IMG/VR virus record: IMGVR_UViG_3300016675_000314
Reading direction: 5' to 3' (one strand)
DNA: 64,000 bases
Source: a virus
Shown here: positions 1 to 58,536 of the stretch, piece by piece
Position numbering within the stretch: position 1 is the stretch's first letter
Layout: every line of letters begins with the position of its first letter
Made by a program: the position numbers and the translations under genes
Notes under the pieces: generated by a model
What the model saw: only the letters and a program-made list of their open reading frames with translations
Told to the model about the DNA's origin: nothing
Databases searched by the model: none

Positions 1-1911
1 TCTGTCTAGAATAAAATGATACCCTTTAGCATCAAAGCTCTTAAACCCCATAGCTAAAGAGGTATAACTTCTAGATGTATCGTACTCATTATCAAAAATG
101 TTAGCAGGCGACAGATTACTAATATCTTTATCAGATGTATCCATCCCCTTTTTCATCACTTGTTCTCTAAGCCATGCGCCGTAATCATTTACTTTTTTAT
201 CGCTACGAGATACAAACGTTTTACCAAAATAAGTAGTCATAGCTACTCTATCTGGATCAGTTTTTCTAAAAGGCACATCACCTCTTTGTTTGCGCTGTCT
301 GTATCTTACGCCGCCAGAGACGTAAACACCCTCTTCATCCAATACAGGAATATTAAACCTTAATGTGCTAGGCAAACCTTCAATTGGCGTAATTCTGACT
401 GTATGGATATCAAACTTACCAGAAATGTTCTCAACTCTTTCAACATCGTATTTGTTAATAACAAACCCACCCTTTTGAGAGTTCACAACCATTGATGCAA
501 TATCTTTATTAAGCACGTGCTTAATATACTGCTCATCAAATTCCACCAAGCTGTTTTTTAGCATGGTCTTATCTGGTACAGTAGCTATGTCTTCAAATTT
601 ATAAGAGTCAATCACTAAATCTTTATTAGAAACACTTGCAAATTCAGACAGTGATTCATTACTAAATGGAGACTTAATTTTCTTATAGTTTTCACTTAAA
701 TTAAGAAAACGTCTATATTCGGCTGCAGTTAACGCTCCGTTATCGGCTAAGTCGTCACAGACTTTCTTTAAAACTTCTTCTGGCGTCTCACCTATCTTAA
801 AATCATCCAAAGATACGATAGAATGAACGCGTTCTTTTTGTTCATCTAAACTATCGTCAATTTCTTCTTCAGAAGATAGTTTTTCAAGTGTTGCTAAATC
901 ATCGTCAAGATTATCGAGTAAAGACTGGGCTATATCGCTAGCTGATTTTTCCCCATCATCAGTCTCGCTAGCGGATACCTCTGTAGGGTTTACGGATATT
1001 TTAACACCACTTTCTTCGTCGGTAGTTATTTCATCATCGACGACTACACTGGTGCGAAGCGCCATCATAGTCATCATTAACTTTAAAAACCTCTTTTGAA
1101 GATCGATTGGTGCAATCTTAGTTTTTTGACCCTCTAATTCTTGACCTTTAATATAACGCCATGAATTAATAGTGCCAAGATTAATAACTACGTATCTACC
1201 AGACTCTTTAAAAATAATGTTTATTTTTTTCAAAGATTCTTGAGAAACATCGCCAATGACACTTTCATACCGATGTTCTTGGCTGAGCCATTTCCAAATC
1301 TCTAGTAAGAACCATGAATTAGGACCTCCGAGATTTCTTACTGTTTTATCTGTAAACTTATTAGCATGAACATTTAGAGTATTCATGCTGGGCAGCTTTT
1401 CAGGTAAATCAAAAAACATAAACTGGTGTCTATCACTATACTGCGCTATCTCGACAGCTTTAGACCACATAGTCTTTTGTAAATTCCACCACTTGTAGTA
1501 GTCGGCATAAATACTTCTTACATACCTATAACCTTTTGCTACTGGACAATAGTTTACAGCAATCAAAGTGTATGGATCGCTAACGGTTTCAGTTGGTTTA
1601 TCCGCATACCTGAAGCGTTTATTCTTCATGTGGTATTGTCGAATCAACTGCATCAGCATGAGCGATGTCTTTTTTGGACTACCTCTATCACTCGATAGCG
1701 TCTGGATGTGTTCTACATAAATTTTCTTTTGAATATCTCTGTAAAAGTATTCGCTAGATTCAGGACCATCTAAAACACTATCCCAGCTCATGTAGTGATG
1801 AATGCTGCCTAGCGGGAATTGAAATTTATCAATCGTAGGCATGTAGGGCAGCATTAAGTGTGCTGGCAGCCTGACAGCATTACGACGATAAAAGATATCG
1901 TAAGTAAACAT
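1..1911 (-). CDS. Virion RNA polymerase beta subunit, N-terminal portion (phiKZ gp178-like); runs off the left edge of the window
   Basis: Absent from the ORF track, translated by hand. ATG at 1911 with AAGGA upstream; reads open to position 1 (MFTYDIFYRRNAVRLPAHLM...VRYRQRKQRGDVPFRKTDPDRVAMTTYFGK...). The sequence style and the position directly downstream of the beta' gene, opposite a gp181-like gene, match the recalled phiKZ gp178-180-181 layout. Confidence 0.8.
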   Translation of the reverse strand, partial: MFTYDIFYRRNAVRLPAHLMLPYMPTIDKFQFPLGSIHHYMSWDSVLDGPESSEYFYRDIQKKIYVEHIQTLSSDRGSPKKTSLMLMQLIRQYHMKNKRFRYADKPTETVSDPYTLIAVNYCPVAKGYRYVRSIYADYYKWWNLQKTMWSKAVEIAQYSDRHQFMFFDLPEKLPSMNTLNVHANKFTDKTVRNLGGPNSWFLLEIWKWLSQEHRYESVIGDVSQESLKKINIIFKESGRYVVINLGTINSWRYIKGQELEGQKTKIAPIDLQKRFLKLMMTMMALRTSVVVDDEITTDEESGVKISVNPTEVSASETDDGEKSASDIAQSLLDNLDDDLATLEKLSSEEEIDDSLDEQKERVHSIVSLDDFKIGETPEEVLKKVCDDLADNGALTAAEYRRFLNLSENYKKIKSPFSNESLSEFASVSNKDLVIDSYKFEDIATVPDKTMLKNSLVEFDEQYIKHVLNKDIASMVVNSQKGGFVINKYDVERVENISGKFDIHTVRITPIEGLPSTLRFNIPVLDEEGVYVSGGVRYRQRKQRGDVPFRKTDPDRVAMTTYFGKTFVSRSDKKVNDYGAWLREQVMKKGMDTSDKDISNLSPANIFDNEYDTSRSYTSLAMGFKSFDAKGYHFILDR

Positions 1912-1931
1912 AATCTTTTAATTTCCTTTTA

Positions 1932-2114
1932 TTAAACCGGCTCAGGATCACCTGTCATATTGTGCAAAACAAAGTTAATAGTATCAATACCTATACTAAA
2001 ATTCATCTTGCCGTTTGTACCAATATAGAATTTTCTACTATTTAAGAGGGTATCTACCTCCGCAATAGCTTCATCAGAGTACGTAATAGAACCACTTGCT
2101 GTATCGCCATCAAA
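1932..2114 (-). CDS. Exon 2 of the virion RNAP beta' subunit (60 aa, begins FDGD)
   Basis: TTT GAT GGC GAT at 2114-2103 follows the intron-terminal G (2115). Open to TAA at 1934-1932: FDGDTASGSITYSDEAIAEVDTLLNSRKFYIGTNGKMNFSIGIDTINFVLHNMTGDPEPV. Joined to exon 1 it restores LGADFDGD. Confidence 0.92.
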   Translation of the reverse strand, partial: FDGDTASGSITYSDEAIAEVDTLLNSRKFYIGTNGKMNFSIGIDTINFVLHNMTGDPEPV

Positions 2115-2596
2115 CTTGTTGTTCAGTAAGGGGCGTTAAGCCTTACCCGCAGCATTACCTGCAAACGCTGCATGTCTCCATGCAGAACAGACCATATCTT
2201 CACCTTCACCATTACATGTTAAGGTGTTTCCCATTTCGGACCACTTGGCCCTACCCCTTGCCTAAGGGTTGGTCGTTGAACCTTTCTCATACGCTGTATA
2301 CACTGCGCTTAGAGACTTGGCTGCTGATTTTCTCTACCCTTGTGTTTTTTGACATTCACGTTTAGCTTTTCAGCTTACGTTGTAGTACACAGGTCTTACG
2401 AGATGTTCCAGCAATTAAAGAAAAATCTTCTTTTACATTTCTGCAAAAGAGGACAATGATAACCTTTCGAAATCTGGATAAAAGATTCTAAAGTTCCTTA
2501 CAACTTTCATTCCTTGTATCCAAACTTCCGGAAAGCATATCTAACTCCTATAAATTGTCATTTATAGGGTACGTAGATATACAGCGGTTATCGATC
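2115..2596 (-). mobile_element. Self-splicing group I intron, 482 nt, no homing endonuclease ORF (IA-like, with extra stems after P7)
   Basis: The 5' exon ends in U (GAT) and the intron ends in G. Core elements on the minus strand: P AATTGCTGGAA (2416-2406), Q AATCAGCAGCCAAG (2329-2316), R TTCAACGACCA (2280-2270), S AAGATATGGTC (2200-2190), giving P7 GACCA/TGGTC. P2 is CTTTTGCA-GAAA-TGTAAAAG and P9 is CTGCATG-GAGA-CATGCAG, both with GNRA loops. The IGS at 2464-2451 places a U.G wobble at the 5' splice site. Confidence 0.93.
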
Positions 2597-4051
2597 ATCG
2601 GCACCGAGGCTAGCTAGTTTTGAAGAATGGGGACTCATTGATTCAACAAACGCGCCAGCTTCCTGAGGATACTGGTATGCCGTTTTATCTGCAATTGGTT
2701 CCCATAAATCATCTAACGGAATTAACTTTAAACCGGTTGTAGTGGTTTTAAGATAAGTCTTGCTAGGATAGATAGAGTGCGGTGAAGCAATAGGGTAACG
2801 AGTAACAAATAAGGGGTATTTGTTAGACCCTTCGTAAACACTCACATACATCAATTCAATAAATGTAATCGGTTTTACATTTTCTAATTTGAATCGTTTT
2901 GGTAAATCATCAATATCTTGAAAAAACTTAAAGTACTTATCGTCTTTATAAACTAATCCAAGATAATGACCATTTACCTCAATAGGTCTGTGCCTGAGAC
3001 TGGCTTCACCAAAATTAGAAATAACTTTCTCTAAGCCCTCATCAGTCATCCAATAATCAAAAACCTCGGGTTTTATATCCACAAGTTTTCTTTTAAAGCT
3101 ATTTTTATCTACAAGTACTGCTGGATTATTAGGGCCAGTAAACACCGTAGAGAGGAACCCATTTTTTAATTTGAATTTACTGATAGGTAGTGTTGCTTTT
3201 AAAAACTGATACAAACCAATAATTGTATCGTTAAACTTCAAGGCGCCCGGTGCACGTATTTCATCAGTAGTCACATGCATCGATGTAATAACGTTACGCG
3301 TTGTGTTGAAGATCTTTCTTGACGCCCATTTACCAAGCATTAGTTTTTTCTTACCCTTTACCATAGATTCAAAGAGTTCATAAATTTCATTGAACGTTCT
3401 TTGCATGGTCATTCTGGTGCTGTTGTAAATTTTAATATCAGCGTCAGAGATATTATTAGGTATTGTGGATGCTAGGCCTATTAGTTTTTTATATAAGCCA
3501 TTGACCTCTTCTTCAGAATATCTTCCGTCACCTTGAATTTCAAAGTCACGCATTCCAGCTGGAAGCACCACTACTTTAGAAGGTAAGGCTGCTGATTTTT
3601 TAGACTTATATTTCTCAATAAGTTTAATATACTCATTGCGAAGATCACTGGGTCTTTTAGGAAACTCTATTTTATCCCAGTATTTAATAAAGAAATCAAA
3701 GCCTGTCTCACCGTCCATGGGGTTGGATGTTTCAAAGTCTTTAAGCTCATTATTCCAAATGGCGTACACTTTACCAGACATAATGTCTGCGTATACTTTT
3801 CTTAATGCCACAAGTGAATTATAAATTACAGGATGAAATACCTGAATCTTTATATCGATATATGAAAAATTTCTTTTTCTTCTTTCATCACCGACTTTAC
3901 CAAAAATTATAGTTGAGTATAATCCCTCGTCATGAAAGTTTTTACTCATACCGTCAAAGATATCAGATACCTTGACTGGTTTTAAACCGTTTAAAGTACT
4001 TTCCTCAATAGGTAGTAGCGCAATGTTAAAAGGTATTGCTAAATTACTCAT
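2597..4051 (-). CDS. Exon 1 of the virion RNAP beta' subunit N-part (phiKZ gp180-like); spliced product 545 aa
   Basis: The 487-aa ORF has beta' motifs (VVVLPAGMRD, GKWASRKIFNTTRNVIT, VTRYP) and ends ...LGAD|DR*, in the middle of the (N)ADFDGD catalytic motif. The rest of the motif is in exon 2. Confidence 0.92.
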
Positions 4052-19653: not shown

Positions 19654-20322
19654 TTAAAGAGTGGATTTAATATGCATGGCTGTTAGGATGGTTTTCATAG
19701 TCTTAGTAGACTCTACGCCAGAAGCGTATGGCGCAATAGCTTTAATGGATACTCCGCCTGTTCTTGAAATCATCGTGTTCATGGCGTCAAAACCTTTTAA
19801 ATCACCGCCACGAAACTTTATCATTTCAGTCATGTTCTGATCTAAACCCATTGCGGCTAAGACCTGCGCTTCAGGGTAAGAGATTTTAGCTCCTTTAGAT
19901 TTACCCGTTGGTTGACCAGTTAAATCGTCAACACTCTTATTATCCTCAGGAATAGATATCTTCTTAACTAAAAGCTGCGCCTGTCTGCGAAGAGGTAGCT
20001 TTACAACCATGTATGGAATAGGTGTTAAATAAGCAGGTCTATCACCAGAGGCGCCTATCCAGATACGTTGGAAGAAATCGTAATTAAGTTCTTTTGCTAA
20101 ATCAAGATTTCTTTGTGTAGATAAATCAGGCTTAGCGCCATTTGGAGCAATAAGACATAGATGTTTGGTCTTATCTTTTAAGTCAATCATAAACTGATGA
20201 AACTGCTCATCAGTCATTTTAGAAAACATATCTTGGTAGTATTGTTTATTTTCACTACCTGGCAAGATTTTATCAATATACTCAATAATAAAATCTTGAG
20301 CTTTTTGTCTTTTGGTACTCAT
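19654..20322 (-). CDS. Virion RNA polymerase beta subunit C-terminal part (phiKZ gp149-like)
   Basis: 222 aa; RRQAQLLVKKISIPEDNKSVDDLTGQPTGKSKGAKISYPEAQVLAA resembles the beta switch-3 region. Confidence 0.8.
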   Translation of the reverse strand: MSTKRQKAQDFIIEYIDKILPGSENKQYYQDMFSKMTDEQFHQFMIDLKDKTKHLCLIAPNGAKPDLSTQRNLDLAKELNYDFFQRIWIGASGDRPAYLTPIPYMVVKLPLRRQAQLLVKKISIPEDNKSVDDLTGQPTGKSKGAKISYPEAQVLAAMGLDQNMTEMIKFRGGDLKGFDAMNTMISRTGGVSIKAIAPYASGVESTKTMKTILTAMHIKSTL

Positions 20323-56255: not shown

Positions 56256-58460
56256 TTAGATGATGTCGGTAGCAACAGCAACCTTCGAAGCCACGACGCT
56301 TTGCAGACCAGTCACAGACAGCATGGACATGACAGGGCAGTTAACGATGTGCAGGAACGAAGGCATCACGGTCAGTTCCTTGGAGACTTGACCATTACGC
56401 GTGATAGGCAGCACCGTGGTCAGCTCAGGCTTCCACAGCATGTTACCGAAGTTCAGAGCTTGAGCAGCTTCGCCGCCATTAGCATAGCTGAACGCGACAG
56501 CAATCTTACCCTTCATACGTGCGTCGACCGTGTGCACAACCTTAACCTGGAAGTCAGGACCAACAGTGCGCAGGTCACCATCCACTTGCAGATAGCGTGC
56601 CAGCTCTTGATCGGTACCGATGACCACCACAGGGGGTTCAGCATTCACACCAAACATCGCATCAGAAGCAGCCTTGAAACCAGACTGCACGTACATGCGA
56701 TACACCAGGTCACGCACCTTGTTCACCAGCAGACCTTGCAGGTCCTTAGCACGCTCGGCAGAGGTGCGGCTATCAAGGGTAGTGGAGACATCCAGAGCTT
56801 CTTGGAAGAAGGTGGGACGCACCAACATACGACCAACACCCAGCAGCTGAGGAGGCTCGCCGGACGTATCACGCTGATCCACATATTGCGACAGCATGCT
56901 TGCGGTGTTCAGCAGTGTGGTGACTGCTGCGTTAGATGCACGCACTTGTGTCGTGGTGATCAGAGCACCCAGATCCGACGTATCGGTTTGACCGTCCGAG
57001 GACACGGGGCGAGCCACCGTGATAGGCGACAGCAGAGGCACTGCATAGCGCTGACGCCAGTACATCGTCTCCAGTTGATCACCGCGCTGACGACGGTTGC
57101 TATTCGTACGATATGCCTCAACATCGTAACCGATGATGGTGGCAGTAGCAAACAGGTTAGCAATGTCTTGACCAACGCCAGCAGATGTCAGCGACAGAGG
57201 ATTGCCAGAAGCATCCTTCACGGAAGCAACGGTCACGCGGTTACCAAAGACTTCAGTGGTAGCGGTTTGCAGATCCAGTTGACCAGACATATTGAGCGAC
57301 AGATAGACAATAACGTCATTTGTAGCGATGTCTGCCAGAGCGACCATAGCCGAGCCATCAGCGCGCTTCTTGTCCTTGTTCAGCATAGCGCCGTCGGTCG
57401 AGAAGTTCAGGGTCATCAGACGATGCTGACCTTGAACAGCCGAGACGAAGTTATTCGTAGCAAAACCAGTCACATCCAGACGCAGCACGTCAGTATTGGC
57501 GCCATTGACCACCTTCACATACACGTTCTTGAGCATGGGCGCCGTATCGATGGCGTCAGAGCTATCGAGCAGACCGTTAGCGATAAGAGCAGGGGTGCTA
57601 GAAATACCCAGCAGGCTGAAACGCTCACCAACCTTCAAAGGAGCAGTCAGCACGGTTTCGCGACCAACCAGCACGTTAGCAGGAGCCACGTCAGCAGGAG
57701 CCACAAAGTGGGCAGCGGTTTCGGCGCGATGCACGGGAACAATACGCGTAGAGTCGTTACGCAGAATTGTCCAGTCAATCATGGCGCGAATCACGTTACG
57801 ACGCTGGAAGTCGTTGACGGCACCAGAGATATCACGGCGCAGGTCACCGTCGAACACATTGATCAGGCGAACCGAAATATCGAAACCGACGTTATCGGGC
57901 GAAACAGTCAGCGTGGGGAAGAAAGCTTCACCGAAGTCGTTTTGACGCGAGGCTTGCAGGTTGTAAGCCATCGAGTACACGACCACGTCACGGTTTTCTT
58001 TTTCGTCATATGCTTCAAAGGCGGGGATGCGCTTGTCCAGCACGGGGCCTTGGGCTGCGATTTGATCCAGATCCACATTGGTCGTGAACGCTTCGTTAGC
58101 GAAGTTTACACGAGTGGGTTGGTTACGCCAGCGAGCAACGTCACCAGCGAGCACGCCAGCGATCAGCGACGCTTCGCGCTGTGCGCTCGTATACATACGG
58201 TCAACCTTCTTAGCATCAGAGACCGTGGTGCTAACAGCCGACTCAAGCGAGACTTGCAGGTCTTGCATTGCATCGTCCAGAGCAACCATCTGGCCTTCGT
58301 CAATGCTCTCCAGAGCAAAGATTGCAGGAGCAACGCTGGAGGCGCGGCTACGGAAACCTTGTGTGGCATCACGCAGAGTATCAACCAGATTGTCCAGCTG
58401 GTTCGTAGCGCGGTTATTGTGGCGCAGCTTTGCCAGCGCCAGAGTGCGAACATTTGCCAT
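56256..58460 (-). CDS. Major capsid protein (phiKZ gp120-like)
   Basis: 734 aa with AAGGA upstream; FALES/AFEAY protease-type sites; YNLQASRQNDFGEAFFPT and WKPEL motifs; strong GC-rich codon bias; adjacent to gp119-like and DnaB genes. Confidence 0.9.
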   Translation of the reverse strand: MANVRTLALAKLRHNNRATNQLDNLVDTLRDATQGFRSRASSVAPAIFALESIDEGQMVALDDAMQDLQVSLESAVSTTVSDAKKVDRMYTSAQREASLIAGVLAGDVARWRNQPTRVNFANEAFTTNVDLDQIAAQGPVLDKRIPAFEAYDEKENRDVVVYSMAYNLQASRQNDFGEAFFPTLTVSPDNVGFDISVRLINVFDGDLRRDISGAVNDFQRRNVIRAMIDWTILRNDSTRIVPVHRAETAAHFVAPADVAPANVLVGRETVLTAPLKVGERFSLLGISSTPALIANGLLDSSDAIDTAPMLKNVYVKVVNGANTDVLRLDVTGFATNNFVSAVQGQHRLMTLNFSTDGAMLNKDKKRADGSAMVALADIATNDVIVYLSLNMSGQLDLQTATTEVFGNRVTVASVKDASGNPLSLTSAGVGQDIANLFATATIIGYDVEAYRTNSNRRQRGDQLETMYWRQRYAVPLLSPITVARPVSSDGQTDTSDLGALITTTQVRASNAAVTTLLNTASMLSQYVDQRDTSGEPPQLLGVGRMLVRPTFFQEALDVSTTLDSRTSAERAKDLQGLLVNKVRDLVYRMYVQSGFKAASDAMFGVNAEPPVVVIGTDQELARYLQVDGDLRTVGPDFQVKVVHTVDARMKGKIAVAFSYANGGEAAQALNFGNMLWKPELTTVLPITRNGQVSKELTVMPSFLHIVNCPVMSMLSVTGLQSVVASKVAVATDII
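56386..56465 (-). repeat. Direct repeat, copy B (native MCP segment AQALNFGNMLWKPELTTVLPITRNGQV)
   Basis: 73/80 nt identical to 15711-15790. Confidence 0.95.
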
Positions 58461-58536
58461 TTCTTATTCCTTAATGAAGAAAGATATTTTTAAACTCAAT
58501 GCCGTATAGGGGGCAAAACCCGTGAGACTTTGATAC

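Follow-up and report, generated by a model that had tools for sequence, protein, structure and literature searches.

The stretch of DNA analysed here (the window) comprises 64,000 nt of IMG/VR virus record IMGVR_UViG_3300016675_000314. A minus-strand open reading frame at 4051-2588 encodes 487 aa and has the C-terminus LGAD-DR-stop. The initial annotation had paired this reading frame with an exon of 60 codons beginning FDGD and had identified the two as parts of the gene for the beta-prime subunit of the virion RNA polymerase (RNAP). We recovered both pieces, and they match consecutive stretches of a single profile, PHROG 2986 (539 positions). The split gene is flanked by a large tail gene and the RNAP beta gene; phiKZ gp180 likewise lies between gp181 and gp178. 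On the basis of this homology, of DFDGD near the C-terminus and of its place between the tail gene on the tail-sheath side (gp181) and the beta gene (gp178), the split gene is assigned to the phiKZ gp180-like virion RNAP beta-prime family (the beta-prime N subunit), in agreement with the initial annotation. The nearest cultured phage for this subunit is Burkholderia phage FLC9 (49.6%). The features of the locus are listed in Table 1.

Table 1. Features of the interrupted virion RNAP gene and its intron, in window coordinates; helices are predicted.
Feature	Coordinates	Strand	Basis
Downstream virion RNAP beta-like subunit gene (phiKZ gp178 position), exits window	1..1911	-	PHROG 3148
Exon 2, 60 codons + stop, begins FDGD	1932..2114	-	PHROG 2986 positions 485-538
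Group I intron, IA2-type, 482 nt, nuclease gene deleted	2115..2596	-	RF00028, pairing pattern, allele alignment
P9.0, P9 (GAGA loop), P9.1, P9.2, terminal G	2115..2189	-	Fold, pairing
Catalytic core P3-P8, including P7.1 (2268-2255), GUA linker (2254-2252) and P7.2 (2251-2238)	2190..2423	-	RF00028, pairing
P2 hairpin, GAAA loop	2427..2451	-	Fold
Relic 3' end of HNH gene, 24 codons (2507-2436) + stop, 96% identical to intact protein; overlaps guide sequence and P2	2433..2507	-	
P1 3' strand with internal guide sequence; G2454 pairs with U2597	2452..2464	-	Fold
Long stem from both ends of nuclease gene (2535-2517 with 2480-2464), stacked on P1	2464..2535	-	Fold
Relic start of HNH gene (ATG at 2538), now a 16-codon ORF frameshifted at the deletion	2488..2538	-	Allele alignment
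Deletion junction, 4-nt microhomology AAAG; 1001 nt absent relative to L004, L008 and L009	2504..2507	-	Allele alignment
Hairpin, 3' arm over part of relic ribosome-binding site (RBS; AGGAG, 2549-2545) of lost nuclease gene	2547..2568	-	Fold
P1 5' strand, final 3 exon bases and initial 11 intron bases; U2597 is the splice-site U	2586..2599	-	Fold
Exon 1, virion RNAP beta-prime-like subunit (phiKZ gp180 orthologue), 485 codons, ends LGAD	2597..4051	-	PHROG 2986 positions 4-484

The 482-nt insert has stops in all three frames, its length is not a multiple of three, and it falls between AD and FDGD (AD/FDGD) of the beta-prime gene. Exon base U2597 precedes it and its last base is G2115, which are the U at the 5' splice site and the terminal G that had been proposed. 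When the insert is removed, the two exons encode 545 aa, and 540 of these residues are identical to those of P0002, a natural intronless protein whose locus (L003) has both exons joined directly. The junction 2597/2114 is fixed by this allele and therefore no assumption about splicing is needed to place it; other splice sites were rejected because only this junction yields the natural intronless protein. The proposal that splicing would be required to rebuild DFDGD is supported.

The insert has the features of a group I ribozyme. The covariance model RF00028 matched positions 2471-2168 with 91.7 bits (E 3e-22; family cut-off 50 bits), and this was the sole Rfam match in the 64 kb. The core helices P3, P4, P5, P6, P6a, P7 and P8 are all present and all pair, with P3 and P7 forming the pseudoknot. 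In predicted folds of the window and its relatives, P1 has 13 pairs with U2597 opposite G2454. The folding z-score was -6.1 against 100 shuffles, and a second fold gave a z of -8.9. Across eight orthologous introns, 92.7% of cells were paired and 22 pairs had two-sided changes, figures that lean favourable because the window itself supplied the structure and the introns compared are relatives of one another, and in which the register of P7.1 is one base off. Slid-partner controls with the same eight orthologues paired at only 34-45%. Two-sided changes occur in P3, P6a, P7 and P8, and P7.2 covaries.

Two finer points of the initial annotation also held, namely a compensated P7 and GNRA loops on P2 and P9. 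P7 is GACCA/UGGUC (2274-2270 with 2194-2190), and the compensated pair is common to five of the eight orthologues and is therefore a trait of the lineage; the loops are GAAA and GAGA. Hairpins P7.1 and P7.2 linked by GUA are also found in phiKZ, OMKO1 and L130. Joining of P7.1 and P7.2 by GUA between P7 and P3 is the criterion for subgroup IA2 (PMC3428280), and the predicted pairing places the intron in this subgroup. Together, these results indicate that the insert is real and probably a functional IA2 group I intron.

We compared the intron with other alleles from the same 90%-identity protein cluster, in which nuclease-bearing (armed), nuclease-deleted (disarmed) and intronless (empty) alleles coexist. 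In L004, L008 and L009 an intron at the identical site is 1483 nt long and contains a 368-aa HNH ORF that starts from the same ATG as the relic in the window. The L004-type protein contains an I-HmuI-like domain, and its identity to phiKZ gp179 is 38% (E 7e-80). The window intron corresponds to nucleotides 1-93 and the last 393 nucleotides of the 1483-nt intron, with an overlap of AAAG, and these 393 nucleotides are 100% identical to those of L008 and L009. The deletion removes the HNH domain, and the window intron encodes no intact endonuclease. The description of the intron as ORF-less in the initial annotation thus holds in that there is no nuclease ORF now, but the start and last 24 codons of an HNH gene remain and a nuclease-bearing parent exists. 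The idea of a special ORF-less design was not borne out, since the intron arose by deletion from a nuclease-bearing one of the phiKZ lineage.

The same deletion junction is shared by L005 and L006, and the junction of L007 lies a few nucleotides away; the deletion in L007 could come from the same event as that in the window rather than being independent. In the P0001 contig an ORF starts 50 nt past the stop of exon 1, as in armed alleles. The long stem between the start and the end of the nuclease gene is also predicted in armed alleles, where it likewise stacks on P1. Whole-intron folds of L009 and L010 recovered P1 and that of L004 did not; energy minimisation is weak on 1.5 kb.

The site and type of this intron are already known from phiKZ. 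Introns in gp180 and gp179 are noted in PMC11512511, citing Ceyssens 2014 and Mesyanzhinov 2002. In phiKZ (AF399011) we mapped a 1443-nt intron containing gp179 to the identical junction. The two introns thus lie in the same gene with the same neighbours and at the same AD/FDGD junction, and their ribozymes are homologous (69% over 302 nt). In phiKZ the P1 loop houses the nuclease gene, preceded by an RBS hairpin that is equivalent in arrangement to the RBS-covering hairpin in the window, and the window's relatives carry the orthologous nuclease (38%). In contrast to phiKZ, the window copy is without a nuclease, and the pair in P7 is C-G in the window and U-A in phiKZ. What the window holds is a copy of the phiKZ lineage that has lost its nuclease.

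A second case of nuclease loss was found among cultured phages. The 47 Phikzvirus records, counted with duplicates, include 10 armed, 2 disarmed and 35 empty alleles. The disarmed ones are OMKO1 (ON631220; L133:2398-2878) and fMGyn-Pae01 (OR228460; L134), which have an unannotated 481-nt intron in the gp180 orthologue (RF00028, 88.4 bits); in both records exon 2 with FDGD is unannotated as well. What is kept is roughly 100 nt at the 5' end plus the tail of the nuclease gene, so that relics of its start and end remain. We found no published description of this 481-nt intron, although our coverage of the literature is incomplete. The site is the same as in the window and the nuclease is likewise deleted, but the source is a phiKZ-type intron and the deletion is therefore independent of that in the window. 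That both phages are lytic and grown in culture is an argument for splicing of a short intron at this site.

Beyond these groups, AD/FDGD is a known and frequently occupied insertion site. The survey of intron presence and absence suggested in the initial annotation turned up empty, armed and disarmed alleles. Among the closest 120 homologues, 83 are uninterrupted and the others stop after AD (24), after the DFDGD motif (7), after DF (5) or after GA (1). An RF00028 intron was confirmed in three AD-class loci outside the window's cluster (L010, L130 and L131), and some of the remaining AD-class homologues may be contig ends. L045 has a short AD/FDGD intron with no ORF over 80 aa, and L042 probably has one too, with a weak model score. 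No close relative turned up when viral contigs were searched with exact patterns. The seed of both the metagenome and the viral scans was the intact motif, so that interrupted genes are under-sampled, and no frequencies were taken from these scans.

These data support the idea that, very probably, the insert is a group IA2 intron from the phiKZ gp180/gp179 lineage, competent for splicing, and that the loss of its HNH homing endonuclease is recent. As expected from group I chemistry, the guide sequence would pair with the end of the exon (U2597-G2454), guanosine would attack the 5' site, and ligation at the terminal G would rebuild GAD/FDGD and give the 545-aa subunit. In the parent, the nuclease gene would occupy the P1 loop with the guide sequence within its last codons. 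The first and last codons of this gene are predicted to pair, and the resulting stem would bring the distant guide sequence to the splice site. The deletions fall at the tip of this stem, and either the stem favours deletion or splicing survives only where a deletion leaves the stem whole. Loss of the looped-out kilobase with the stem kept would leave splicing intact, so such deletions would survive. The intron would persist because only exact removal restores the invariant motif. Without its own nuclease, the disarmed intron would now move only via recombination with relatives. Decay through loss of the nuclease is what the homing cycle leads one to expect, and the element is at an ordinary stage in the life of a selfish intron.

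A possible though doubtful addition to this main explanation is that the nuclease-less intron is positively selected since it would block the HNH target of relatives without the cost of the enzyme, in a rock-paper-scissors relationship. The three alleles coexist in the 90%-identity cluster and among Phikzvirus, nuclease loss has occurred at least twice, and a three-allele model has been published in which the disarmed intron is the Y allele (PMC3229294). An intron nuclease harms competitors in these phages: the PhiPA3 gp210 intron, located in the virion RNAP beta gene gp211/209, is like that in the window an HNH-type intron at conserved aspartate codons of a phiKZ-like virion RNAP gene, but it lies in another subunit (the gp178 orthologue, not gp180) and its nuclease is active with a shown role in competition (PMC11620839). 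However, neutral decay predicts the same three states (PMC3984707), and the site is equally interrupted in armed alleles, so the insert itself is not special. In addition, I-HmuI and I-HmuII also cut intron-plus alleles (PMC3428280) and the enzyme considered here is I-HmuI-like. Protection is therefore plausible but uncertain because HNH nickases of the I-HmuI type can cut intron-containing alleles.

The sequences on either side of the insertion site suggest that introns have moved here. The window is identical to intronless L132 at all 183 bases of exon 2, whereas exon 2 of the other close relatives has 20 or more differences, beginning at +6. Over the final 300 nt of exon 1 the window and L132 have four differences, at -22, -13, -10 and -7, and the markers at -13, -10 and -7 are found in 4/4 disarmed, 0/3 armed and 0/2 empty close alleles. 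One deletion junction occurs on two exon-2 backgrounds. Window positions 1-2109 (minus strand), from exon-2 +6, form a divergent block that is 84-89% identical to most relatives and 99.7% identical to L132; it starts at the intron insertion site and spans several kb. We considered whether exon 2 had been recoded locally so as to evade the nuclease and rejected this, because the exon-2 divergence opens this several-kb block common to intronless L132. Foreign sequence next to the short intron of OMKO1 amounts to about 240 nt upstream, in exon 1, and almost none downstream. From such upstream-biased tracts it follows that introns at AD/FDGD travel with upstream sequence. L005 and armed L004 have all eight 3' ribozyme markers in common, and recombination between armed and disarmed alleles therefore occurs.

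These flanking markers fit homing-type conversion, and they are consistent both with homing in trans and with homing in cis that deletion or recombination then followed. If homing took place in trans, the empty allele would be nicked by the enzyme of an armed phage in the same cell or by a free-standing nuclease, and the disarmed allele would serve as the repair template. We consider this rather unlikely for the window, even though its exon 2 equals that of L132 with exon-1 markers specific to disarmed alleles, one deletion junction stands on two backgrounds, and OMKO1 has its foreign tract almost entirely upstream. The same pattern would result from cis homing by an armed copy followed by recombination or repeat deletion, precise intron loss in L132 could also account for it, and the sample is small, at nine alleles. 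No free-standing homologue of the intron's own nuclease was found within the 64-kb window, and no HNH or GIY-YIG gene was found among 20 other ORFs scanned in the window or adjoining the intron. A precedent for this mode of movement is the T4 nrdB intron, which is described as mobilised in trans by the free-standing mobE. Like that in the window, it is a phage group I intron with an HNH gene (I-TevIII) inactivated by a large deletion and intact in relatives (RB3) (PMC2988022, PMC2790892). It differs from the window intron in its host gene and in having mobE, for which no similar neighbour was found within the window.

The two preceding ideas can be combined into a broader proposal, to which we give a low probability, in which the disarmed intron is an active third allele: the stem would make nuclease loss recurrent and harmless to splicing, and the intron would resist or exploit the armed enzyme and spread in trans. 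If this were so, the alleles would cycle as in the rock-paper-scissors model.

It is very unlikely that the intron is kept to tie virion-polymerase output to the state of the cell through splicing efficiency. Splicing appears obligatory for activity, and condition-dependent splicing of other phage introns is reported in work cited in PMC10914365. However, the 83 uninterrupted homologues include alleles 99% identical in protein, and the intron is therefore dispensable. That the intron is dead or splices poorly, with the gene a pseudogene or an assembly artefact, is extremely improbable: long-read transcriptomics of phiKZ did not detect splicing at gp179 under its conditions (PMC10914365), but here the helices of the core all pair, neither exon is damaged and both closely match the intronless allele, L005, L006 and L007 from independent samples contain the same short intron, the cultured lytic phages carry an equivalent short intron, and DFDGD is essential for the enzyme (PMC10612078).

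With the preferred reading of a splicing-competent intron that has lost its nuclease, the element is ordinary, yet it gives a momentary view of the homing cycle, in which two separate phage groups each contain all three alleles. Direct evidence is described as scarce by those who proposed the three-allele model (PMC3229294). The cultured trio of KTN4 (empty), phiKZ (nuclease-bearing) and OMKO1 (nuclease-deleted) permits a direct test of whether the disarmed intron acts as a shield or as a rider on a competitor's nuclease. A spliced gene model is needed here, in phiKZ, in OMKO1 and in many relatives, where the annotation omits exon 2, which encodes the catalytic aspartates.

Several other arrangements were observed among the homologues. 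L130 contains a 1710-nt intron at the same site with a 435-aa HNH protein (L130:4518-5825) that is about 38% identical to the L004 and phiKZ proteins. Two tandem group I introns are found at the motif in each of L041:2819-3632 and L044:2820-4700, and the first intron of L044 contains a 357-aa ORF homologous to HNH proteins. In L035:2822-3159 a short group I intron lies past the second aspartate of a DYDGD-type motif, with an approximate 3' junction. Inteins were considered for homologues of 654-662 aa and rejected, as these proteins have an uninterrupted DFDGD and owe their greater length to an extension at the C-terminus. P0005, P0007, P0008, P0011, P0014 and P0050 have a C-terminal extension of about 110 aa with a DG(F/Y/L)HRL motif, which may be ParB-like. 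Extra ORFs past exon 2 are present at L008:6047-6454, where exon 2 continues into similar extension sequence.

Elsewhere in the window, a 222-aa ORF at 19654-20322 (minus strand) matches PHROG 3233 (RNA polymerase subunit) and, weakly, a hydrolase family; it is probably the small C-terminal virion RNAP beta-prime subunit. At 56256-58493 two long ORFs overlap on opposite strands, one of 734 aa on the minus strand and one of 730 aa on the plus strand.
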